A DNA stretch of 39,745 bases from the IMG/VR virus record IMGVR_UViG_2579778884_000013. One strand, written 5' to 3'. Each line of letters opens with the position of its first letter. The stretch's first letter is position 1. Below the pieces are notes generated by a model. That model made no database searches. It worked only from the letters and a program-made list of their open reading frames with translations, and was not told where the DNA came from. Shown here in pieces: positions 5,614 through 36,950 of the stretch. A program made the translations under genes and the position numbers. The DNA is from a virus (Duplodnaviria; Heunggongvirae; Uroviricota; Caudoviricetes).

Positions 5614-5717
5614 GTTAAATCTCCAGATAGTCGCAGCACCCGTTGCGCCGCATATCTGGTTATTCTATTACCAAAAAAACCATATATGGATAGAAAGACT
5701 GTGAATATGAATAGATA

Positions 5718-5732
5718 TTACCTTTCAGGTAA
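5718..5732. promoter_or_regulatory. Operator-like palindrome TTACC-N5-GGTAA (TTACCTTTCAGGTAA)
   Basis: Perfect 5-bp inverted half-sites with 5-bp spacer, in divergent intergenic region between tailspike and SOS-controlled small gene; same motif recurs at least 11 more times. Confidence 0.5.
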
Positions 5733-5771
5733 TTTGCAAAACGTGCTGGATAGCAAACAAATTATTTGCTA

Positions 5772-5787
5772 CTGTATAAATATACAG
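5772..5787. promoter_or_regulatory. LexA (SOS) box CTGT-N8-ACAG
   Basis: TACTGTATAAATATACAGTTA matches consensus TACTGT(AT)4ACAGTA; 8 nt upstream of ATG 5795 and 23 nt upstream of ATG 5810. Confidence 0.75.
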
Positions 5788-5809
5788 TTATTGCATGGAG
5801 AAGATTAAG

Positions 5810-6067
5810 ATGCAGCAGTATCACTATCCACTGGAAGAGGGATTTACCGAAAGGATTCACACGCCGGGAGGCGTCAGGTCACTGGTGGAGGGATCGCACT
5901 TGATGAAATTACTCCGGGATCTCGATAAGGATGGATTTAATGTCGATGGCCCACTTGCCGAACTGACTGCACTGATTAACTACGTCACCAGCTCACAGAT
6001 GTCTATGCAGGATCTGCAAACACATCTCGACTATTGTGCCGAACAATTACGAAAACAAACCAGATAA
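5810..6067 (+). CDS. Small SOS-controlled protein, paralog of C-terminal domain of adjacent AntA-like protein; candidate small antirepressor
   Basis: GGAG RBS 9 nt upstream of ATG 5810 (alternative ATG 5795 lacks RBS); aligns with C-terminus of 6385..7041 product (LMKLLRDLDKDGFNVDGPLAELT vs [24 protein letters not shown]; DLQTHLDY vs DIQTHAEY). Confidence 0.6.
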   Translation: MQQYHYPLEEGFTERIHTPGGVRSLVEGSHLMKLLRDLDKDGFNVDGPLAELTALINYVTSSQMSMQDLQTHLDYCAEQLRKQTR

Positions 6068-6098
6068 GGTTTGAAATTACCAAATGGAGTGCTTATAT

Positions 6099-6113
6099 TT
6101 ACCTTTGCGGTAA
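6099..6113. promoter_or_regulatory. Operator-like palindrome TTACC-N5-GGTAA (TTACCTTTGCGGTAA)
   Basis: Perfect half-sites; lies between small SOS gene and AntA-like gene. Confidence 0.45.
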
Positions 6114-6203
6114 ATTTACATCGCACTCCTCTTGTGCCATAGTAATCGGGCACTGGCAAAATCCAGTGCCGGGATTGGTCTCCCGGATTACTAAGTGGCG
6201 CAT

Positions 6204-6227
6204 ACCACGCCAGACGTGGTTTTTTTA
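6204..6227 (+). terminator. Rho-independent terminator after small SOS gene
   Basis: Stem ACCACG/CGTGGT with 5-nt loop followed by T7 run. Confidence 0.5.
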
Positions 6228-6384
6228 TGCGTATAGCACAGTCATGCCAGAATTATGGTGGGCTGAATGGGGGTCCGAAAGGACGCCGGTACCACTTAGG
6301 CCGGTAAGACCAACTCCGTTCAGTTCACCACCATCTGATTGGTCTCAGCGGTGGTGATGTAATTCGCTAAGTGGAGACGCCATC

Positions 6385-7041
6385 ATGAACGCTCAACTCA
6401 TCCCCGTATTCAACGGCACTATATCTAACGAAACAGCCCTACTTTGTAATGCCCGCGATCTGCACGCTTTTTTAGGTGTTAAAAAGGTGTTTGCAGCATG
6501 GATTACAAATCGCATATCAGAATACGAATTCATTGAAAATCAAGACTATATTTTGCTTTCCAATTTGGGAAAGCAAACATCTGGTAGAGGCGGCCACAAC
6601 CGCAAAGAGTACCACCTCACCCTTGATACAGCCAAAGAGCTGGCGATGGTCGAGCGTAACGAAAAAGGTCGCCAGGTGCGACGCTACTTCATTGAATGCG
6701 AGAAACGTTTAAGACAACAAGAAACAAAAGTGGAGAAGGTCTTGTCAGGCTTCATGCCCGCCATTATGGAGGCGATCAAGCTGGAAGACAAAAAAGAATA
6801 CAGTGCCCCACTGAAGCCCGGCTACCGCAGCCTGATTCACTCGCCGTCTGGTGTTCTCGGCCTGACGGAGAACTCACTGCTGATGAATCTGCTGAACCAG
6901 TTACAGGACGACGGGCACGACGTATCGGGCGCGGCGGCGGAGCTGACCACCATGTTCTGCTACATCGTTGGTGTGAGCAAATGCCTGCGTGATATCCAGA
7001 CGCACGCGGAGTACATCAACGACAAGGCAGGGTTCTTCTGA
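6385..7041 (+). CDS. AntA-family antirepressor-like protein with C-terminal domain shared with small SOS protein
   Basis: N-terminal region [32 protein letters not shown] resembles AntA/AntB antirepressor domain; GGAG RBS 8 nt upstream. Confidence 0.7.
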
Positions 7042-7085: not shown

Positions 7086-7128
7086 TTGCAGACTGGGGGT
7101 GAATAGCGTACTATTACCTCAAGGGTAA
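7086..7128 (+). promoter_or_regulatory. Candidate sigma70 promoter (TTGCAG-17-TACTAT) with operator-like palindrome TTACCTCAAGGGTAA (7114-7128) at -10/+1
   Basis: -35/-10 hexamers with 17-bp spacer; palindrome starts at last base of -10; 60 nt upstream of 210-aa gene. Confidence 0.45.
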
Positions 7129-7187: not shown

Positions 7188-7820
7188 ATGAGAACAAATA
7201 CAACAAGAAAAGCGATGCCATACATTATCCCAGAAGCAGATTTCGATAGAAAACTGAACATGTCTGAGAAGAACACTAGTCACACCGAAAGCTACTTAGC
7301 GAAAGGTGTGGTTGATTTCGTTCTTCCGGGATTCACAACACCTTATGGTTATCGCCTTGTAAAATCTTGTAATGGCGATCATTACAGAATGATTACTACC
7401 AGCGATACTCCAGAAACGGTGTATGCGGTTAAGTTAATCTTTCGGGAAGATATCGTCGAAGCCAAAAGAACATGTACGCAGATCATGGTATGGCGTACGC
7501 CTAATGTTATTCATGACCGTGCTGTTCATGGTTTGCCTCAGATTTTTTTTCAGTTCTTCCTAGAGCAATATGCGATCGTTGTATCTGATGAGCAACAAAC
7601 AATCGATGGGAGAAGATTCTGGGAAAGAATGATTTCTTGGGCTATAAACACCCCAGGATATAATGTATACGTTTCAGATGGCTCTGAAGAAGATAGACCT
7701 CTTAGCTTCATGACATCATGGGATGATTTCTATAGCCAGTGGGCTGATTTCTGTTGGGGCAGTGATAAAGATGTGCATACCCACAGACTACTGGTTATAA
7801 GCAAAGATAAACTGCATTAA
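7188..7820 (+). CDS. Hypothetical 210-aa cytoplasmic protein, no family recognised (orphan accessory gene)
   Basis: Strong GGGAGG RBS 5 nt upstream; own promoter/operator and terminator; appears AT-rich by eye relative to neighbours; no TM or signal peptide. Confidence 0.6.
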   Translation: MRTNTTRKAMPYIIPEADFDRKLNMSEKNTSHTESYLAKGVVDFVLPGFTTPYGYRLVKSCNGDHYRMITTSDTPETVYAVKLIFREDIVEAKRTCTQIMVWRTPNVIHDRAVHGLPQIFFQFFLEQYAIVVSDEQQTIDGRRFWERMISWAINTPGYNVYVSDGSEEDRPLSFMTSWDDFYSQWADFCWGSDKDVHTHRLLVISKDKLH

Positions 7821-24697: not shown

Positions 24698-24787
24698 ATC
24701 AATGACTCCGTACGCAATTAAATTATTACCAATTTAACCACATATGTTTTATTTATCGTAGAAGGTTGACATTTAACGCGCTAATTA

Positions 24788-24802
24788 TTACCTTTCAGGT
24801 AA
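24788..24802. promoter_or_regulatory. Operator-like palindrome TTACC-N5-GGTAA (TTACCTTTCAGGTAA, identical to 5718 site)
   Basis: Lies between - strand late operon start and + strand tRNA unit; TTGACA hexamer at 24766-24771. Confidence 0.45.
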
Positions 24803-25124: not shown

Positions 25125-25201
25125 GTGGCATTAGCTCAGTTGGACAGAGCAACCGCCTTCTAAGCGGTTGGTCGCAGGTTCGAATCCTGCATGCCACGCC
25201 A
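25125..25201 (+). tRNA. tRNA-Arg (anticodon UCU, reads AGA)
   Basis: Cloverleaf read directly: acceptor GTGGCAT/ATGCCAC, D-arm GCTC-AGTTGGACA-GAGC, anticodon arm ACCGC-CTTCTAA-GCGGT, T-arm GCAGG-TTCGAAT-CCTGC, discriminator G, encoded CCA. Confidence 0.85.
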
Positions 25202-25244: not shown

Positions 25245-25287
25245 GGCGGTGATGGTTTCCCTTGAAGGACTATCACCGCCCTTTTTA
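25245..25287 (+). terminator. Rho-independent terminator after tRNA
   Basis: 9-bp stem GGCGGTGAT/ATCACCGCC around 18-nt loop, followed by CTTTTT. Confidence 0.55.
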
Positions 25288-25364: not shown

Positions 25365-25388
25365 GCCCGGTTCGCCGGGCATTTTTTT
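25365..25388 (+). terminator. Strong hairpin with U-tract abutting RBS of Gp49-like gene (terminator or attenuator)
   Basis: GCCCGG-TTCG-CCGGGC (UUCG tetraloop) followed by ATTTTTTT, then AAGGTGAG RBS and ATG 25400. Confidence 0.55.
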
Positions 25389-27322: not shown

Positions 27323-27915
27323 TGATTACCATCCTGACGTTCTTTGAGTCGCTTCCTGGCTGCTGCTATGCGATCAGCAATTGTCACATTCACATTAACA
27401 TCCAGGCGTTCTTTGAATGCGTTGACGTCGACGTGCTTACCAATCAGTTCGAGGTTCTTCACCTTGTCAGGCCATTTAATTTTTTTGAGGATTGTCTCTA
27501 TCGAATCCTCGTTCATGTTCATGATGGTCGATGACAGATCAAAGCCACTAAGCGTAGTGCGCCAGATTTTCGGCCACTCACGGATTGGTTTAAGGCTCCC
27601 ATCGTCGTTGAGGATGTCGATCACGTCCATCTGGTCGATCTCCACCAGGCGCATGAGAACGTAATCAGCACTGACGCGCATTCGTTTGTTGCGCTCCTCC
27701 ATCAACTCGGCAATCCGTTTTTGAATGCGTTCATCGCGCATCATGACACTGGCTTTAACTGCCGCTGTATTTGGAGAGAATCCTGCGTTAATCGCTGCCT
27801 GAGTCTGGTTTTCAGGCGTTTTGATGTATGACTGGCAATAAGCCTCCTGCATTGCTGTTAGTGGCTTAAATTGCGTTGATTTGCGTTTATAGGTTTTAGG
27901 TTCAGCAGGCATCAT
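27319..27915 (-). CDS. Terminase small subunit
   Basis: Terminase_2-like N-terminus (LTAMQEAYCQSYIKTPENQTQAAINAGFS); start set to ATG 27915/27912 rather than TTG 27993. Confidence 0.75.
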   Translation of the reverse strand: MMPAEPKTYKRKSTQFKPLTAMQEAYCQSYIKTPENQTQAAINAGFSPNTAAVKASVMMRDERIQKRIAELMEERNKRMRVSADYVLMRLVEIDQMDVIDILNDDGSLKPIREWPKIWRTTLSGFDLSSTIMNMNEDSIETILKKIKWPDKVKNLELIGKHVDVNAFKERLDVNVNVTIADRIAAARKRLKERQDGNQ

Positions 27916-28033
27916 AACCACCGTGGTAATAGTTACCGTTGTGGTAATAGTACCATGCAAAATAAAGCCGCCATAGTTGGCGGCAGTATTCAAAACCCAT
28001 CAAATTCATCATGCATAATCTACTCGTGACATG

Positions 28034-28372
28034 TCACACTATTAATTTCGTTTCATGCCAGCCTTTAGTCACCCAGCATTGCGAGTCACCATTACACGGG
28101 CATGAATTAACTGGAACTCTCTCGCCGCACTTACCGCAACATTTTCTGCTGATCGATTTTATACGCCCGCGCACGCGTGCATCATCCTGGCGGATCAGTA
28201 ACGCTATATACTCACCAAATTCGTAAGGCGCACGCCCGGGGCGACGCGTGGCACAGTTACGCTCCAGCATTTCAATTTCCTGAGCATCAAGCACAATTTC
28301 CAGCTTACGCACACCAGATGCAGCTTGTCTGGCTCTCTGAGCGGCTTTGCGCTCTGCTGCTGATTTAGCCAT
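28034..28372 (-). CDS. Hypothetical protein with C-terminal Cys cluster (possible zinc ribbon)
   Basis: C-terminus CCGKCGERVPVNSCPCNGDSQC; basic helical N-terminus; ATG 28372 (track start is TTG). Confidence 0.45.
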   Translation of the reverse strand: MAKSAAERKAAQRARQAASGVRKLEIVLDAQEIEMLERNCATRRPGRAPYEFGEYIALLIRQDDARVRGRIKSISRKCCGKCGERVPVNSCPCNGDSQCWVTKGWHETKLIV

Positions 28373-28646
28373 CAATATTTACCTTTATCGCGAACACATT
28401 TACCGGTTTATCGCCGATGTGCGGATGTGTGATTGTCTTGATTTCATATCCGTCATACGGAACATCAATTCTACGGCTGGAATCGTCGCGCTTCGGATAT
28501 CCCTTTGTGATAATCAGGCGGTCATATTCCCGGAACATAATTCGCTTATTCCAGTAGTCATTACACAGGCGATACTCTTCCGTTTTATCTCCGCGAATCA
28601 TGGCATCGAAGTATTCACCTTTGACGGCAAGTTGCAGGTTAGCCAT
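28365..28646 (-). CDS. Hypothetical protein (possibly ASCH/PUA-like fold)
   Basis: ATG 28646 with GGAGGTG RBS; 1-nt overlap with upstream gene; fold assignment unverified. Confidence 0.45.
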   Translation of the reverse strand: MANLQLAVKGEYFDAMIRGDKTEEYRLCNDYWNKRIMFREYDRLIITKGYPKRDDSSRRIDVPYDGYEIKTITHPHIGDKPVNVFAIKVNIDG

Positions 28647-31342: not shown

Positions 31343-31419
31343 TTACCCTTGAGGTAATTAAAAACCACATAAGACACGAAATCAATAGATTTTAGAATAT
31401 TTTATTACCCAACAGGTAA
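31343..31419. promoter_or_regulatory. Two operator-like palindromes TTACC-N5-GGTAA (31343-31357 and 31405-31419)
   Basis: TTACCCTTGAGGTAA overlaps RBS of DUF1064-like gene; TTACCCAACAGGTAA 48 nt upstream; both in intergenic gap after P-like gene. Confidence 0.45.
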
Positions 31420-31456
31420 TTATCAAGACGTAAAAAAATGCGCTATCGCGCTGGTA

Positions 31457-32257: not shown

Positions 32258-33078
32258 GCTTCAGGGCTGTTCCAGTGCGGAACGTTGTTATCAGGTAATG
32301 TTGATTGCTTCTGTCTGCTAATCTGCAGCCGCCTTGCCAGCTTCTGCTCCCACTGTGCCTGATGGTATGCCTTACCCTCAGCCATCCAGTAAATTCTGAA
32401 CTCTGCAAGTTCCTGTGCCGTTGGCAGACTGTCCAGGTAGATCCCCTGCAATGAGCTTTTCCGAAGAAAGTCATCTGATGGCTGCCATTGTTCATGCATG
32501 ACAAATTTGCCTAATTGCCCTGGCCCACCAGGAGGAACAAAGTTATTCATCACGGCGTTGTTTGCTCCGGGGTCATGAGGCACAGAATCCCCGCTTTTTG
32601 TCCTGCTCTCCCTCTCTTGGTTAAATGACTGGTTATATGACTGGTTCTGGATCCCGTTTTTGGGATCATTCAACATCCCGTTTTTGGGATCATTCAACAT
32701 CCCGTTTTTGGGATCATTCAACATCCCGTTTTTGGGTATATTCCCGTTTTCGGGTATATTCCCGTTTTCGGGTTCATTGCCCCCCTCCCGGTTGCCTTTA
32801 ATGTTCCCGTTTTTGGTTATATTAAGAGAGAAAACCCGCACTCTTTTTGTCGCTCCCTTTCTCTCTCCGGTATCTGAAATAATCCCCATTTTCATGAGCG
32901 ATATAAGCCCGGCCTGCACGGTTTTTTTATTCAGGCAAGTGTCTTTAACGAGGCGTTCTATGCTGGGGTAGCAGAGGTTATATTCATCGGCTCTGTCAGC
33001 CATCGAGAGCAGTATGAGCTTTAATGATGAGCTACCTGGATCTGTCTCCCAAGCCCAATCTGTTGCATGTCTGCTCAT
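32239..33078 (-). CDS. Replication initiator (lambda O-like), ori iterons inside coding sequence
   Basis: Winged-helix-like N-terminus; internal peptide repeats PKNGMLND x3 encoded by DNA iterons; GGAG RBS; followed by P-like gene. Confidence 0.7.
   Translation of the reverse strand: MSRHATDWAWETDPGSSSLKLILLSMADRADEYNLCYPSIERLVKDTCLNKKTVQAGLISLMKMGIISDTGERKGATKRVRVFSLNITKNGNIKGNREGGNEPENGNIPENGNIPKNGMLNDPKNGMLNDPKNGMLNDPKNGIQNQSYNQSFNQERESRTKSGDSVPHDPGANNAVMNNFVPPGGPGQLGKFVMHEQWQPSDDFLRKSSLQGIYLDSLPTAQELAEFRIYWMAEGKAYHQAQWEQKLARRLQISRQKQSTLPDNNVPHWNSPEAWEDFL
32651..32820. repeat. Phage origin of replication: array of about 7 palindromic iterons (core ATCCCGTTTTTGGGAT) followed by AT-rich segment
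   Basis: Three identical 24-bp units at 32651, 32675, 32699, then degenerate 18-bp units to 32776 and one at about 32805; each contains inverted repeat ATCCC/GGGAT. Confidence 0.75.
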
Positions 33079-33294: not shown

Positions 33295-33396
33295 GGTAAG
33301 CCCTGTTATTAGTATTGGGATTACGGTTATTTTGTGCTGACACAAAAAAAAGATCAACCAGATTTGGTTTTTTATTACCTTTGAGGTACGAATAGA

Positions 33397-33423
33397 TATG
33401 AAAAGACCGCCGGATGGCGGTCT
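33397..33423 (-). terminator. tR1-like terminator downstream of cro-like gene
   Basis: Stem AGACCGCC/GGCGGTCT with 4-nt loop; on - strand followed by TTTTCAT; adjacent degenerate operator-like site 33375-33389. Confidence 0.45.
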
Positions 33424-33444
33424 ACAGAGGGTTGTTGCCAGATA

Positions 33445-33675
33445 TCATGAGTAGAAGAAGTATGCCAGTTCCGCTTTTGAGCGCAGCCATTGTCTTGTTT
33501 TACAGGCTTTAAAAAGCCCATTCATCAATACCTTACCTGGCATTTTGCGCTTACCTGTTAAGTGAGTCTGGATATAGTGACTCGTCGTTCCGGCTTCCTG
33601 TGCGAAGGCTTCACGCTCATCCGGAGTAAGTGCAAGCCAGTGCTTTTTGAAATCGAAATGTCCGTTATCGCTCAT
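33445..33675 (-). CDS. Cro-like HTH regulator
   Basis: Divergent from repressor gene; HTH segment REAFAQEAGTTSHYIQTHLTGKRKMPGK; first gene of - strand early operon. Confidence 0.6.
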   Translation of the reverse strand: MSDNGHFDFKKHWLALTPDEREAFAQEAGTTSHYIQTHLTGKRKMPGKVLMNGLFKACKTRQWLRSKAELAYFFYS

Positions 33676-33711
33676 AGCTATTGCCTGATATTTATTTCAG
33701 ATAATAAATAT

Positions 33712-33774
33712 TCACCCATAAGGTAACAAAAATCAAGGATAGTTACCTATGAGGTGCATTTACCTGTTGGGTAA
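33712..33774. promoter_or_regulatory. Tripartite operator cluster between cro-like and repressor genes
   Basis: Three 15-bp sites: TCACCCATAAGGTAA (33712-33726), TTACCTATGAGGTGC (33743-33757), TTACCTGTTGGGTAA (33760-33774). Confidence 0.6.
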
Positions 33775-33829
33775 TATTGCTTTAAATTGAATCATCTACT
33801 GATTCATATATGAGGCGATTTTCCAGAAA

Positions 33830-34414
33830 ATGAAAAGTATCCAGGACGTCCGCAGGCAAAATCTCAACGACTTGATCGACCGTGAATTCAATGGTGTTCA
33901 GACGCGGATGGCAGAAAAACTTGGAACTCAGGCAAATCTGGTAAACCGCTGGGCTCTTGGAAAGAAGGTTATCGGCGACCAGGTTGCGCGAAAAATTGAA
34001 GCTGCCGCCAATAAACCCCGTAACTGGCTTGATATCGATCGCTCGCTTTCTCAGGAAGGTTTTCAGCCTGTCGGCCCAAGCGACATTGGTCAGCTGGCGG
34101 CTCACAACCTGGAACGCTGGATGAGCGAAAGCCGCGACCTTTCAACGCAGGGAAAACTACACCGCGCATCCGGCGTCGCCCAGGTGACAATCAGCCGCCT
34201 GTTAAACAATGAAGTCAGCGTTTCCATTTCCACCCTGGAGAATGTTGCATCCGCATTCGGGCGTCACGGCTATGAATTACTGATTCACCCGCACGACCCT
34301 GCGACTATCAACTATGATCGCTCGCGCTACGCATTGTTACCTGAAACAGAGAAGGCAAAGATCGAAAGTTACATTGAATTTGTCATCAACCAGAACGAAA
34401 AAAGAAAACAATAA
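33830..34414 (+). CDS. Prophage repressor with two XRE-type HTH domains and no S24 peptidase domain
   Basis: Two HTH-like segments (TRMAEKLGTQANLVNRWALGKK and HRASGVAQVTISRLLNNEVSVS); no Ala-Gly ... Ser ... Lys autocleavage module; divergent from cro-like gene across operators. Confidence 0.7.
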   Translation: MKSIQDVRRQNLNDLIDREFNGVQTRMAEKLGTQANLVNRWALGKKVIGDQVARKIEAAANKPRNWLDIDRSLSQEGFQPVGPSDIGQLAAHNLERWMSESRDLSTQGKLHRASGVAQVTISRLLNNEVSVSISTLENVASAFGRHGYELLIHPHDPATINYDRSRYALLPETEKAKIESYIEFVINQNEKRKQ

Positions 34415-34435
34415 AATCATATTTTTCAGTAAGTA

Positions 34436-34458
34436 AGCCGCCTCATGGCGGCTTTTTT
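34436..34458 (+). terminator. Rho-independent terminator after repressor gene
   Basis: GCCGCC-TCAT-GGCGGC stem-loop followed by TTTTTT. Confidence 0.6.
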
Positions 34459-34471
34459 ATTGCCTATACGA

Positions 34472-34548
34472 TTACCTTATGGGTAATTTTTTTAACTCAT
34501 ATCTATTGACATCAAACCAGATACGCATAATTATTACCTCAACGGTAA
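34472..34548 (+). promoter_or_regulatory. Early-left promoter region with two operator-like palindromes flanking a TTGACA -35 hexamer
   Basis: TTACCTTATGGGTAA (34472-34486), TTGACA at 34506-34511, -10-like CATAAT/AATTAT around 34526-34534, TTACCTCAACGGTAA (34534-34548) at -10/+1. Confidence 0.5.
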
Positions 34549-34567
34549 CAGACCGAGGTAACAAGTT

Positions 34568-34722: not shown

Positions 34723-35022
34723 ATGAACGTTAATCAGCAGAAAAATCTTCAAAAAATCATGCTGGCATTCGACAAGGACTACCCCCTGTCAGAACAGCTA
34801 TATGACCGACAAGTTGAACTGATTGAGAGCATCCGACTTCATCAACTGTCCTCAACTTTCGACGTTGTAACAGGCAAAGGCGTTCGTCAGGAAGTGCTGG
34901 AGGCTGCTAAAGACAGCCCTGAGTTCGAAGAACTGATGGATGCCTACCGGCGCGAGGCAATGGCAATTATAGCGCGCTGGGATCTGGCGGATCAGCTTGA
35001 TGGGCAGAGGGACGCGGCATGA
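34723..35022 (+). CDS. Hypothetical early protein
   Basis: GGAGGG RBS 6 nt upstream of ATG 34723; stop overlaps exonuclease start. Confidence 0.5.
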   Translation: MNVNQQKNLQKIMLAFDKDYPLSEQLYDRQVELIESIRLHQLSSTFDVVTGKGVRQEVLEAAKDSPEFEELMDAYRREAMAIIARWDLADQLDGQRDAA

Positions 35023-35918
35023 TGCGGAACGCTGGAATCATGGATAGAACAAAATACATCGGAGGAAGCGATGTTGCAGGGATTCTTGGAATTAGCCCAT
35101 GGCGCACCCCGCTTGAGGTTTATCTGGATAAGGTACAGCCACGTGTCAAACCAGTAGACCCAAGCAAGCAGAAAGTTTTCACGCGTGGCCAGCGTATGGA
35201 GCCATACGTAATAGACCTGCTTTCTGAGGAAACAGGGATGGAAATCGTTCATCGCGGAAACCGCTATATCCACCGTGATTACGATTTTATTGCAGCTGAG
35301 ATCGATGCAGAAGCAGCGTCAGGCGAGAACATTGAGATCAAAACAGTTAGTCCGTTCAAAGCCAAAGAATGGGGAGAAATCCAGACAGATGCAATTCCTG
35401 TGCATTACACGGCCCAGGCCATGCACGGGTTGATGGTTACAAACAAACAGGTATGCGTTTTCGGTGTGCTTATCGGTGGCGACGACTTCCGAATCTATCG
35501 GGTTGAGCGTGATGAAGAAACTATCCAGGCGATCTTAGAAAAAGAAATCGCTTTCTGGGACCGAGTGAAAAATCTTAACCCGCCGGAAGCTACCAGCGTA
35601 AGCGATGTATCGCTGATGTTTGAGAAAGATGCCGGGACAAGTATCGAGGCTGACGGAAAGGCACTCGCACTATTCAACGATCTACGAGACATGAAATCAC
35701 GCAGAAAATCACTGGAAGAAGAAATAGCTATATCAGAAGAGAAGCTGAAGATGTACATGCAAGAGCACTCAGTCCTGACCCTGGACGGAAAGCCGCTCTG
35801 CACATGGAAATCTCAGATCAGCAACAGATTCGACCAGAAGCTATTCCAGTCAGTACACCCTGAGTTATTCGAAAAATTCAAAACAACAACGACACAACGC
35901 GTCTTCAGAATGAAGTAA
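35019..35918 (+). CDS. YqaJ-like viral recombinase exonuclease (lambda Exo-fold)
   Basis: N-terminal motif YIGGSDVAGILGISPWRTPLEVY typical of YqaJ domain; immediately upstream of recT. Confidence 0.8.
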   Translation: MMRNAGIMDRTKYIGGSDVAGILGISPWRTPLEVYLDKVQPRVKPVDPSKQKVFTRGQRMEPYVIDLLSEETGMEIVHRGNRYIHRDYDFIAAEIDAEAASGENIEIKTVSPFKAKEWGEIQTDAIPVHYTAQAMHGLMVTNKQVCVFGVLIGGDDFRIYRVERDEETIQAILEKEIAFWDRVKNLNPPEATSVSDVSLMFEKDAGTSIEADGKALALFNDLRDMKSRRKSLEEEIAISEEKLKMYMQEHSVLTLDGKPLCTWKSQISNRFDQKLFQSVHPELFEKFKTTTTQRVFRMK

Positions 35919-35927
35919 GGAGAAAAA

Positions 35928-36950
35928 ATGTCTATCAATGCACTTAAGGCAGCGGCTACCGGTAACCAAGTTGCACATCATAATGAGAAACCAACAACTC
36001 TGGCCGGACTTCTGGCAGACCCAAAAATTAAAGCTCAGATGGCTTTGGCACTTCCAAAGCACATGACAGCAGACCGTCTGGCGCGCATAGCAACCACAGA
36101 GATCAGAAAGGTTCCAAAACTTGCATCATGCGACCAAGCCAGCTTCCTGGGGGCAATTATGCAATGTGCCCAATTGGGTCTTGAACCAGGCGGAGCTCTT
36201 GGACACGCTTACCTGATACCGTTCGACAAACGCCAGAAAGTAAATGGAAGATGGGAAACCGTATCTACAGAAGCACAGCTGATTATCGGCTATCGCGGAA
36301 TGATTGACCTTGCCCGCCGCTCTGGGCAGATCCTGAGTATCTCGGCTCGTACCGTACATACAAACGACAAATTCAGCTACTCATACGGCCTGGAAGAAAC
36401 GCTCGAGCATTTACCTTGCGAAACAGGTGACCGCGGAGAATTAACGCACGTTTACGCCGTTGCACGACTGAAAGATGGCGGAGTCCAATTTGAAGTTATG
36501 AGCCGGGCAGACGTTGAGAAAGTTCGTGCACTGAGCAAAGCCGGTAGCAGTGGCCCATGGGTTGATCACTTCGATGAGATGGCTAAAAAAACAGTAATTC
36601 GCCGACTGTTCAAATATCTTCCTGTTTCTATTGAAATGCAGAAGGCTGTTGTTATGGATGAGCGCGCTGAAGCTGGACTTAGCCAAGATAACGCAGCTGT
36701 TATCACTGGTGAATATTCCGTAGTTGACGATGAGCGTCAACACCTGTCGCCAATTTCAGATTCAGAACGAGAAGAAGCTCGAGAATATATCATCGCGATA
36801 CTTAATAGCCTGGATCCATCTGCTGAAGATGCAAAAACGATGTTCAAGCGCGCTGAAAATGAAATTAACACCATGGCTGAAAAGCTCGGTGATGAATATC
36901 ACCAAAAATTCATGATGACGCTTAACGATATGCGTCCAGAATTCGAGTAA
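35928..36950 (+). CDS. recT: RecT-family single-strand annealing recombinase
   Basis: Extended similarity to E. coli RecT (HMTADRLARIATTEIRKVP, LGLEPGGALGHAYLIPF, IIGYRGMIDLARRSGQI, HVYAVARLKDGG). Confidence 0.9.
   Translation: MSINALKAAATGNQVAHHNEKPTTLAGLLADPKIKAQMALALPKHMTADRLARIATTEIRKVPKLASCDQASFLGAIMQCAQLGLEPGGALGHAYLIPFDKRQKVNGRWETVSTEAQLIIGYRGMIDLARRSGQILSISARTVHTNDKFSYSYGLEETLEHLPCETGDRGELTHVYAVARLKDGGVQFEVMSRADVEKVRALSKAGSSGPWVDHFDEMAKKTVIRRLFKYLPVSIEMQKAVVMDERAEAGLSQDNAAVITGEYSVVDDERQHLSPISDSEREEAREYIIAILNSLDPSAEDAKTMFKRAENEINTMAEKLGDEYHQKFMMTLNDMRPEFE

Follow-up and report, generated by a model that had tools for sequence, protein, structure and literature searches.

The window that we analyzed (39,745 nucleotides of DNA from a tailed virus; IMG/VR record IMGVR_UViG_2579778884_000013) carries the lysis/lysogeny switch of a phiV10/epsilon15-type Escherichia coli prophage. 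On the evidence of its genes and sites, it is very probably the immunity switch of a temperate podophage of the epsilon15/phiV10 type (genus Uetakevirus), built on an SPC32H-type repressor (Rep). An antirepressor-controlled, non-self-cleaving repressor system of this kind is already known and has been structurally solved in the Salmonella relative SPC32H, and the epsilon15 reference genome already carries an annotation of the operator palindrome; little is therefore added, i.e., the E. coli (phiV10-type) version of the SPC32H Rep-Ant pair. The window and phiV10 share ~98% DNA identity, and the prophage element was found in 562 of 5,426 complete E. coli genomes (~10%), with O157 and ST131-type strains among the carriers. 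Induction through LexA and the antirepressor Ant, not through repressor cleavage, would help to predict which drugs induce these prophages.

The Rep-Ant system of SPC32H was reportedly described by Kim and Ryu in 2013 (J Virol) and by Kim et al. in 2016 (PNAS). Our statements on SPC32H draw on PDB entries and secondary descriptions (PMC9638917 and PMC9986798). The relatives retrieved via the Rep alignment (80 loci) were all 99 to 100% identical and offered no diversity; diverse relatives were instead taken from a homologous-protein search and from two encoding contigs.

The center of the switch comprises two divergent genes and the sites between and beside them:

33830-34414, plus strand: repressor gene (Rep; ORF, 194 aa), 99.5% identical to phiV10 gp40
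33445-33675, minus strand: cro-like gene (ORF, 76 aa), heading the leftward early (replication) operon
33712-33726: operator O_R1 (TCACCCATAAGGTAA), one mismatch to TTACC-N5-GGTAA, within the spacer/-10 of the leftward cro promoter
33743-33757: operator O_R2 (TTACCTATGAGGTGC), two mismatches, 31 bp from O_R1
33760-33774: operator O_R3 (TTACCTGTTGGGTAA), perfect, the closest of the three to the repressor gene and 17 bp from O_R2
33701-33736, minus strand: P_R-like promoter for cro (promoter scan and conservation), -10 TATTAT (33706-33701)
33404-33423, minus strand: intrinsic terminator after cro (terminator scan), annotated in phiV10 too
33375-33389: imperfect operator (TTACCTTTGAGGTAC) shortly past the cro terminator; all four lineages have an imperfect site here

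The original prediction had placed three operators at 33712-33774, between the cro-like gene (minus strand) and the repressor gene (plus strand), and they were found there, all within the 154-bp gap between the two ORFs. Epsilon15, Tyrion, and BUCT711 likewise have three sites in this layout, spaced 30-31 and 17 bp apart. The cro-like protein matched phrog_35 ("transcriptional repressor"; 5.6e-13) and had no match in Pfam or PDB; within its HTH segment (AGTTSHYIQ.HLT), four lineages agree at 12 of 13 positions. The -35 candidates of the P_R-like promoter are TTGTTA (33729-33724) and TTGATT (33736-33731), the latter being invariant in four lineages. The expected terminator after the cro-like gene is intrinsic (33423-33404, minus strand); past it, around the weak operator at 33375, no convincing promoter was detected.

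The repressor ATG had been said to have no obvious Shine-Dalgarno sequence, and this holds: the only GAGG is 15 nt upstream, and none stands at normal spacing in four lineages. A leaderless repressor transcript is not supported, because no -10 lies at the right distance from the ATG. When consensus and conservation were used to search for a PRM-like maintenance promoter, no convincing -35/-10 pair was obtained, and only two features stood out, a TTTAAATT block and, within the right arm of O_R3, a conserved TAATAT.

Behind the repressor gene lies a second control region:

34435-34454, plus strand: intrinsic terminator after the repressor gene (terminator scan), annotated in phiV10
34472-34486: operator O_L2, perfect, 20 bp upstream of the P_L-like -35
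34506-34534, plus strand: P_L-like promoter TTGACA-17-AATTAT, 10 of 12 consensus positions
34534-34548: operator O_L1, perfect, adjoining the -10 and covering the expected transcription start, 62 bp from O_L2

This order agrees with the earlier claim of a repressor gene followed by a terminator (34435-34454) and then by an operator-flanked promoter of the recombination operon (34506-34534, with two perfect palindromes). Small ORFs, a YqaJ exonuclease, and RecT lie downstream of the promoter, whose CTATTGAC is conserved in four lineages. The proposed resemblance to lambda OR and OL was likewise borne out by the tripartite operator, the divergent genes, and the OL-like promoter with two operators. 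Shared with lambda CI/Cro are the divergent genes around three operators, the second operator set at a red-like operon, and the terminator after cro; the three sites and the cro promoter were seen, and a PRM equivalent was not located. The differences from lambda are that Rep has no S24 autocleavage domain, that operators also precede late and accessory operons, and that Rep is reportedly a tetramer with a trans DNA-binding mode (literature).

Along the Rep chain, three parts were assigned:

aa 1-72: DNA-binding HTH domain
aa ~89-154: HTH_3-like middle dimerization domain
aa ~155-191: C-terminal tetramerization/Ant-binding segment

Judged by full-length homology, fold, architecture, and predicted tetramer interface, Rep is a member of the SPC32H-type repressors. 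It aligned with SPC32H Rep (PDB 5D50_A) over aa 1-191 (phmmer; E, 3.5e-42) and with the C-terminal-domain structure 5D4Z over aa 89-191 (3.6e-20), and ranks 1 to 12 of the Foldseek search were all 5D50 or 5D4Z. In the AlphaFold model, aa 4-59 and aa 85-151 form helical bundles, and aa 172-193 form a further helix. Residues F187 and F190, which belong to the tetramer interface of SPC32H Rep, have Y181 and F184 as their aligned counterparts here, and F184 is invariant in 27 homologues. The recognition helix residues N36, L37, V38, R40, and W41 are conserved across epsilon15, Tyrion, BUCT711, and two further prophages. Compared with epsilon15 Rep, the nearest SPC32H-type sequence aligned, the middle domain is 35% identical and the C-terminal segment 49% identical. 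Rep is only ~42% identical to the characterized SPC32H Rep, and Ant binding by it is therefore put forward as a prediction.

A second HTH-like domain in place of an S24 peptidase domain had also been claimed. The observation itself stands, i.e., Pfam scored HTH_3 at aa 106-147 (1.2e-9) and a weak YdaS/Cro-type HTH at aa 21-61, with no S24 peptidase domain among the Pfam matches; its reading is refined, as the counterpart in SPC32H is a dimerization module (MDD) and not a second DNA reader (PMC9986798). It would still be conceivable that each Rep chain reads DNA with both of its HTH-type domains, a monomer or dimer spanning a composite site, given that the middle domain is a genuine HTH_3 by its Pfam score, which is stronger than that of the N-terminal domain. 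We consider this highly improbable: besides the SPC32H counterpart, the operator is symmetric with identical half-sites, yet the two domains differ in sequence, and the C-terminal half is neutral against a net charge of +5 (pI 10.3) in the N-terminal domain. The preferred reading is thus a single DNA-binding domain per chain followed by assembly modules; in SPC32H Rep, a third, C-terminal module after the MDD serves for tetramerization and Ant binding (PMC9986798), and the protein binds palindromic DNA sites as a tetramer that is disassembled by Ant (PMC9638917 and PMC9986798).

The inducing signal of such a repressor would come from elsewhere in the genome, and ~28 kb from the switch we found the following:

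5810-6067, plus strand: ant, encoding a small antirepressor of 85 aa that is homologous to SPC32H Ant
5770-5789: LexA box (TACTGTATAAATATACAGTT), agreeing with the consensus at 18 of 20 positions and lying 20 bp before ant

Ant matched PDB 5D50_E (E, 1.6e-47) and shares 89% identity with the product annotated as "ant" in SPC32H (KC911856); in PDB, Pfam, and PHROG searches, it matched only the chain 5D50_E (SPC32H Ant) and phrog_450, a PHROG family without a name. Ant and Rep occur in essentially the same phage records (37 with Rep and 35 with Ant). The LexA box is the only match in the window within three mismatches of the 20-bp LexA consensus, and it is conserved in epsilon15, Tyrion, and phiV10, the relatives differing by one to three bases (degenerate search and direct reading). 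From these features, ant is predicted to be under LexA control. The small Ant gene is labeled "hypothetical" in phiV10-type records; in the available excerpt of the 2022 ZX5 paper, the antirepressor name is given only to the larger Bro-N protein, and the small Ant is not among the lysogeny proteins named there.

The repressor had been predicted to be non-cleavable, and this agrees with SPC32H Rep, which is inactivated by the antirepressor Ant and not by cleavage (PDB 5D50; PMC9638917 and PMC9986798). In the rival account, Rep is a lambda-type CI with a degenerate S24 domain that is inactivated by RecA-stimulated self-cleavage. The layout is indeed lambda-like (divergent repressor and cro genes, tripartite OR, and OL before recombination genes), and mitomycin C induces a lysogen of phage ZX5, whose repressor is reported to be identical to phiV10 gp40, ~100-fold (2022 ZX5 paper). 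A self-cleaving CI is nevertheless scarcely credible: Pfam gave no S24 domain, neither an Ala-Gly nor a Cys-Gly dipeptide occurs anywhere in the Rep protein, the C-terminal half matched the helical Rep structure 5D4Z, and an ant gene behind a LexA box accounts for SOS induction. We infer that Rep is not cleaved, in keeping with the antirepressor-controlled switch.

Operators are not confined to OR and OL and stand before nearly every transcription unit. Perfect copies of TTACC-N5-GGTAA number 10 in the window, against 0.01 expected from shuffles, and matches with up to two mismatches number 36 against 10.8 expected. Three of the five best sigma-70-like promoter matches in the window adjoin an operator. 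The further sites are as follows:

5718-5732: perfect operator in the divergent ant/tail-fiber control region, with orthologous sites in epsilon15, Tyrion, and BUCT711
7114-7128: perfect operator upstream of ORF 7188-7820 (phrog_1349, function unknown)
24788-24802: perfect operator upstream of the portal/head operon (minus strand), with orthologues at epsilon15 2932, Tyrion 3969, and BUCT711 34570
27915-27947: operator pair (one mismatch plus perfect) with 18-bp spacing, flanked by a terminator and by the start codon of the small-terminase gene
31343-31426, minus strand: promoter-like TTGATA-16-TAAAAT (31426-31399) plus two perfect operators, between the P-like replication gene and the DUF1064 gene

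The small-terminase pair is likewise present in epsilon15 (12/30) and Tyrion (67/85). At 31343-31426, one operator lies in the promoter spacer (31405-31419) and the other 62 bp away (31343-31357), and the position of this 62-bp pair is common to epsilon15, Tyrion, and BUCT711. Epsilon15, Tyrion, BUCT711, and two further prophages, with Reps 42 to 79% identical, all preserve the motif, its positions, and its spacings (17, 30-31, and 62 bp). Co-variation of operator and repressor between immunity groups was considered and rejected, the operator core being invariable. The conserved spacings provide a testable handle on the mode of repression by the Rep tetramer, which, as a 2023 structural paper remarked, had yet to be elucidated. 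The promoter scan found no sigma-70-like promoter at the operators before late operons; these sites may act by occlusion, as a roadblock, or not at all.

The assignment of the palindromes to Rep has one competitor, in which they are mainly sites of the Cro-like protein or of another regulator (e.g., phrog_536, 28034-28375) and Rep binds elsewhere or at a subset. Conservation of the Cro-like HTH at 12 of 13 positions matches the invariance of the motif, and both proteins might share the sites; the late-operon sites lack sigma-70 promoters, and the epsilon15 record, which labels 7 of 11 perfect sites as repressor protein_bind sites, may hold only a prediction. However, conservation of the recognition helix of Rep is just as strong, the palindromes stand on either side of the repressor gene at the two adjacent early promoters, as would be expected of an immunity repressor, and tetrameric binding of SPC32H Rep to palindromic sites has been reported (PMC9638917). 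Furthermore, overexpressed ZX5 repressor abolished free phage and lowered lysis-gene transcription by 99.97 to 99.99%, according to the ZX5 paper. We therefore regard the competing assignment as improbable and retain Rep as the likely ligand.

Directly after ant follows a second antirepressor module (6071-7041):

6071-6113, plus strand: promoter-like TTGAAA-17-TATATT (6071-6099) adjoining a perfect operator (6099-6113), at the head of the module
6150-6226, plus strand: small RNA of the isrK family, terminator included (Rfam RF01394; 67.7 bits, gathering cutoff 50)
6251-6335, plus strand: member of the C4 antisense RNA family (Rfam RF01695; 61.2 bits, gathering cutoff 45)
6385-7041, plus strand: large antirepressor (218 aa) with an AntA N-terminal domain and a C-terminal Ant-like domain (aa 137-213)

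The large antirepressor matched Pfam AntA (4e-26), phrog_450 (5.7e-36), and PDB 5D50_E (8e-14) and is 42% identical to the small Ant. As in immI of P1, a C4 RNA precedes the antirepressor gene and the promoter bears an operator of the main repressor; no icd-like leader ORF was present in the 49-nt gap between the end of C4 (6335) and the ATG at 6385. The original prediction, centered on the immunity region, did not include the Ant homologue with its LexA box, the genome-wide operators, or this module.

From homology and sequence, the following course of events may be proposed. The basic N-terminal HTH domains of Rep, acting in pairs, would bind the 15-bp palindrome TTACC-N5-GGTAA. Rep would dimerize through the HTH_3-like middle domain and tetramerize through the C-terminal segment, and each tetramer would therefore present two DNA-reading pairs. 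Rep at O_R1 would occlude the cro/replication promoter and, at O_L1 plus O_L2, clamp the promoter of the recombination operon, while the sites before ant, the second module, the nin-like region, the small-terminase gene, and the portal and tail-fiber operons would silence almost all other units. Upon DNA damage, LexA would leave the box at 5770-5789 and the 85-aa Ant would be made; Ant would bind the C-terminal domains of Rep, releasing it from DNA, and Cro would then take over. The larger Ant-domain protein is preceded by a Rep operator and by the isrK and C4 RNAs, and its probable role is to reinforce or gate the decision.

A broader reading joins a genome-wide Rep clamp or loop, a frozen operator, and a two-tier induction; we put it forward tentatively and consider it, as a whole, rather more doubtful than probable. 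Its first part supposes that the tetramer, with two DNA-reading pairs ~100 Å apart, clamps or loops each promoter through one invariant palindrome at fixed spacings of 17-18, 30-31, and 62 bp. The second part is that the operator, present at >10 sites in each genome, may be frozen in evolution. Phages of E. coli, Salmonella, Enterobacter, Klebsiella, and Serratia carry the identical operator, with Reps only 42 to 79% identical; a frozen operator, if real, predicts cross-immunity across host genera. In the third part, the LexA-controlled Ant may be the trigger, and the Rep-repressed, C4/isrK-gated AntA-Ant fusion may act as a self-reinforcing amplifier.

The nearest system, that of SPC32H, shares the genus-level phage type, gene order, full-length Rep homology, an 89% identical Ant, the LexA box before ant, the absence of an S24 domain, and a tetramer-interface Phe; it differs in the Rep sequence (only ~42% identical) and in the host, which is E. 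coli here. In epsilon15 (repressor gp38; NC_004775), the operator core (A)TTACC-N5-GGTAA(T) stands at orthologous positions, namely, OR, OL, the small terminase, the portal operon, ant/tail fiber, and the nin-like region. The central spacers are A/T-rich there and mixed in the window, OL has three sites there and two in the window, and the second module (isrK, C4, and the AntA-Ant fusion) is absent from the epsilon15 record.

In the Gifsy prophages, coliphage 186 (Tum), and N15, a stable repressor is likewise removed by an SOS-induced, LexA-controlled antirepressor (PMC3121763), whereas Ant is reported to act on the tetramer C-terminal domains and not on the DNA-binding surface. The second module resembles immI of P1/P7 (c4-icd-ant) and isrK-anrP of Gifsy-1 in having a main-repressor operator at the promoter, then C4 (and isrK), and then an antirepressor gene; it differs from them in having no icd-like leader ORF and in the SPC32H-Ant-like C-terminal domain of its antirepressor. 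Finally, Rco/Rap of pLS20 and the p53-like TetDloop combine, as Rep does, an N-terminal HTH with a C-terminal strand-helix tetramerization domain and proposed looping (PMC9986798), Rep differing from pLS20 Rco/Rap in its extra middle dimerization domain. The phased operator pairs (31 and 62 bp) would fit a DNA-looping idea of the TetDloop type.

Judged by sequence, the switch of the window belongs to the Rep-Ant (repressor-antirepressor) family of Salmonella phages SPC32H and epsilon15; every sequence-level defining feature of this family that we tested was found. The window corresponds approximately to one prophage, with an integrase at the right end and lysis genes plus two accessory ORFs at the left end. 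The 1.3-kb switch region is 98.3 to 98.6% identical to Escherichia phage phiV10 and relatives and 100% identical to prophages of several human E. coli isolates, one ST131 strain among them; matches were present in 562 of 5,426 complete E. coli genomes. Both phiV10 and epsilon15 belong to the genus Uetakevirus and are temperate podophages. The switch was known before this analysis: the phiV10 annotation lists gp40 as a putative repressor with two helix-turn-helix (HTH) motifs, and a protein identical to gp40 has been tested in phage ZX5. The structure and mechanism of the SPC32H homologue were published in 2016. The accessory ORFs, which lack a counterpart at the same position in phiV10, are possibly moron or cargo genes:

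1-516, + strand: glycine-zipper/TraT-like lipoprotein, left end, beyond the lysis genes
532-1071, + strand: DUF5384 protein, left end, beyond the lysis genes

The switch region contains the following features (genes from ORFs, intergenic operators from a motif search):

33423-33404: terminator 3' of the cro-like gene
33445-33675, - strand: cro-like gene, 76 aa
33712 (start), cro/repressor intergenic: operator TTACC-N5-GGTAA, 1 mismatch
33743 (start), cro/repressor intergenic: same motif, 2 mismatches
33760 (start), cro/repressor intergenic: same motif, perfect
33830-34414, + strand: repressor gene, 194 aa
34435-34454: terminator 3' of the repressor gene
34472-34486: perfect palindrome, 20 bp upstream of the -35 of the next promoter
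34506-34534: near-consensus promoter TTGACA-17-AATTAT, beyond the terminator
34534-34548: perfect palindrome adjoining the -10 of that promoter

The original prediction had described three operators between the two genes, a terminator and then an operator-flanked promoter between the repressor gene and the recombination genes, a terminator after the cro-like gene, and a repressor ATG without a Shine-Dalgarno sequence. Given that all of these elements were found, and that none of four lineages has a Shine-Dalgarno sequence at normal spacing, this description is confirmed. The leftward cro promoter, with the 33712 operator placed in its spacer and -10, may be TTGTTA-17-TATTAT or use a fully conserved TTGATT one turn upstream. 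To the right of the repressor gene lie two small ORFs, a YqaJ exonuclease (299 aa), and RecT (340 aa); the latter two are separate ORFs (35019-36950, + strand), as in epsilon15, whereas the phiV10 record annotates one 586-aa RecE-RecT fusion. To the left of the cro-like gene are a small ORF, a DnaT/HTH_36 replication initiator, and a lambda-P-like gene. Tandem repeats within the initiator gene (32618-32773; 24 bp × 3.6 at 100% identity, 18 bp × 2.8, and 12 bp × 2.4) code for GMLNDPKN repeats of the protein and are presumably origin iterons.

The bistable layout is like that of lambda, but the repressor and the induction route differ. A cleavable CI repressor has little support: Pfam detected no lambda-type S24 peptidase domain in Rep, the window's repressor, and the whole Rep sequence contains no Ala-Gly or Cys-Gly cleavage dipeptide. 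Pfam placed HTH_3 in the second half (aa 106 to 147; 1.2e-9) and, weakly, a Cro/YdaS-type HTH in the first. Full-length Rep matches the SPC32H repressor crystal structure (5D50_A; E, 3.5e-42), and its C-terminal half matches the Rep(92-198) structure (5D4Z; E, 3.6e-20). The AlphaFold model (pLDDT, 76) comprises two helical bundles and a long C-terminal helix, with 5D50 and 5D4Z as best PDB matches, followed by generic XRE-family HTH proteins (e.g., SinR). SPC32H Rep consists of an N-terminal DNA-binding domain, a middle dimerization domain, and a C-terminal tetramerization/Ant-binding domain with a p53-like strand-helix fold (PMC9986798, summarizing Kim et al. 2016). Its tetramer interface involves F187 and F190, which align with Y181 and F184 of the window's Rep (F184 is invariant in 27 homologues), and its two middle-domain pairs are ~100 Å apart. 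The N-terminal domain of the window's Rep is basic (pI 10.3; +5) and the remainder neutral. The second HTH-like domain of the prediction therefore does exist; homology, however, would make it a dimerization module rather than a second DNA reader. Two DNA-reading domains per chain, as the HTH_3 match might be read, have little support.

The perfect motif TTACC-N5-GGTAA occurs 10 times in the window (0.01 expected) and precedes almost every transcription unit. Beyond the switch, the sites are as follows:

5718: perfect, ant/tail-fibre control region
6099: perfect, head of the second antirepressor module
7114: perfect, upstream of an ORF of unknown function
24788: perfect, upstream of the portal/head operon
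27933 and 27915: perfect and 1-mismatch partner, flanked by a terminator and the small-terminase start codon
31343 and 31405: both perfect, between the P-like gene and the DUF1064 gene
33375: 1 mismatch, directly after the cro terminator

Of the five best sigma-70-like promoter hits in the whole window, three adjoin an operator (6071-6099, 31426-31399, and 34506-34534). When all 5-N(2-9)-5 palindromes of each genome were counted de novo, this motif ranked first in every genome examined:

Perfect copies of the operator and Rep identity to the window
Window: 10 copies; reference
Epsilon15: 11 copies; 42%
Tyrion: 9 copies; 79%
Klebsiella phage BUCT711: 9 copies; 45%
Serratia prophage (partial locus): 7 copies; 54%
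Metagenomic relative (partial locus): 6 copies; 55%

Sites in relatives occupy orthologous positions with spacings kept: 30 to 31 bp plus 17 bp between the cro-like and repressor genes, 18 bp before the small-terminase gene, and 62 to 63 bp at the recombination-operon promoter and in the nin-like intergenic region (8/8 pairs in four complete genomes). Motif, positions, and spacings (17 to 18, 30 to 31, and 62 bp) are identical in five relatives' loci despite 42 to 79% Rep identity; therefore, the operator does not covary with the repressor, because the recognition helix (N36, L37, V38, R40, and W41) is conserved across the compared Reps. In the epsilon15 RefSeq record, seven of these palindromes are annotated as repressor binding sites, so the operator set had been recorded before, as a prediction if nothing more. 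The reading that the palindromes belong mainly to Cro has little support. A 31-bp spacing (~105 Å) matches the ~100-Å gap between tetramer halves, and 62 bp corresponds to roughly six turns of the helix. These lengths fit one Rep tetramer that would hold two operators, whether the DNA runs straight or forms a small loop with the promoter in it. The residual novelty lies in this frozen, phased, genome-wide candidate operator set, in the cross-genus immunity that it would imply if frozen across relatives, and in a predicted dual antirepressor wiring.

A block, CATAT(A/G)TGGTT-N5-6-TGGTAATA(G/A)A, lies on the - strand upstream of the tail-fibre gene (~5663-5691; conserved in four lineages) and the portal operon (~24727-24750) and may be an activator-dependent late promoter with an operator half-site. 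A candidate activator of the late genes is the 113-aa phrog_536 "transcriptional regulator" (28034-28375, - strand), located directly upstream of the terminator, the operator pair, and the small-terminase gene. By annotation, its phiV10 counterpart (gp55) resembles epsilon15 gp49, and epsilon15 gp49 resembles N15 gp46. A tRNA-Arg (anticodon TCT; 25125-25201, + strand), followed by two strong terminator hairpins (25245-25280 and 25365-25380), lies between the portal operon and the large-terminase gene.

Tetrameric SPC32H Rep binds palindromic sites and is split when the antirepressor Ant, itself a tetramer, engages two Rep dimers (PMC9638917). An 85-aa ORF in the window (5810-6067, + strand) matches the Ant chain of 5D50 (E, 1.6e-47) and is 89% identical to annotated SPC32H ant. 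Twenty bases 5' of it is a LexA box, TACTGTATAAATATACAGTT (5770-5789); no other site in the window comes as close as 3 mismatches to the LexA consensus. The box is conserved in epsilon15 and Tyrion, and phiV10 has it with a single change. Kim and Ryu are said to have reported in 2013 that ant is under LexA repression. Conservation is much higher in Ant than in the Rep that it targets (85 to 89% identity to epsilon15/SPC32H Ant versus ~42% for Rep); against epsilon15 Rep, the middle domain is 35% and the C-terminal segment 49% identical. The ZX5 repressor is 99.5% identical to the window's Rep. The authors of the 2022 ZX5 paper describe it as identical to phiV10 gp40, with free phage rising ~100-fold under mitomycin C; repressor overexpression abolished free phage and lowered lysis-gene transcripts by 99.97 to 99.99%. 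The Ant homologue, the LexA box, and this induction make an SPC32H-type mechanism most likely, in which stable Rep would be displaced by SOS-induced Ant.

Downstream of ant lies a second antirepressor module (6071-7041, + strand):

6071-6099, + strand: promoter adjoining a perfect operator (6099-6113), module head
6150-6226, + strand: isrK-family sRNA (67.7 bits)
6251-6335, + strand: C4 antisense RNA (61.2 bits)
6385-7041, + strand: antirepressor gene, 218 aa, AntA N terminus

The module is like P1 immI (c4-icd-ant) and Gifsy-1 isrK-anrP, but ORF inspection of it found no icd-like leader ORF. The C terminus of the 218-aa protein (aa 137 to 213; ~80 aa) is homologous to small Ant (42% identity; phrog_450, 5.7e-36; 5D50_E, 8e-14). 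An Ant-like C-terminal domain is also present in the Tyrion Bro-N protein at the equivalent position and is truncated in that of phiV10. Small Ant is "hypothetical" in the ZX5 record and goes unnamed in the available portions of the paper, which state that overexpressing ORF4, the larger "anti-repressor," lowered lysogeny, as explained by the Ant-like C-terminal domain of the larger AntA protein.
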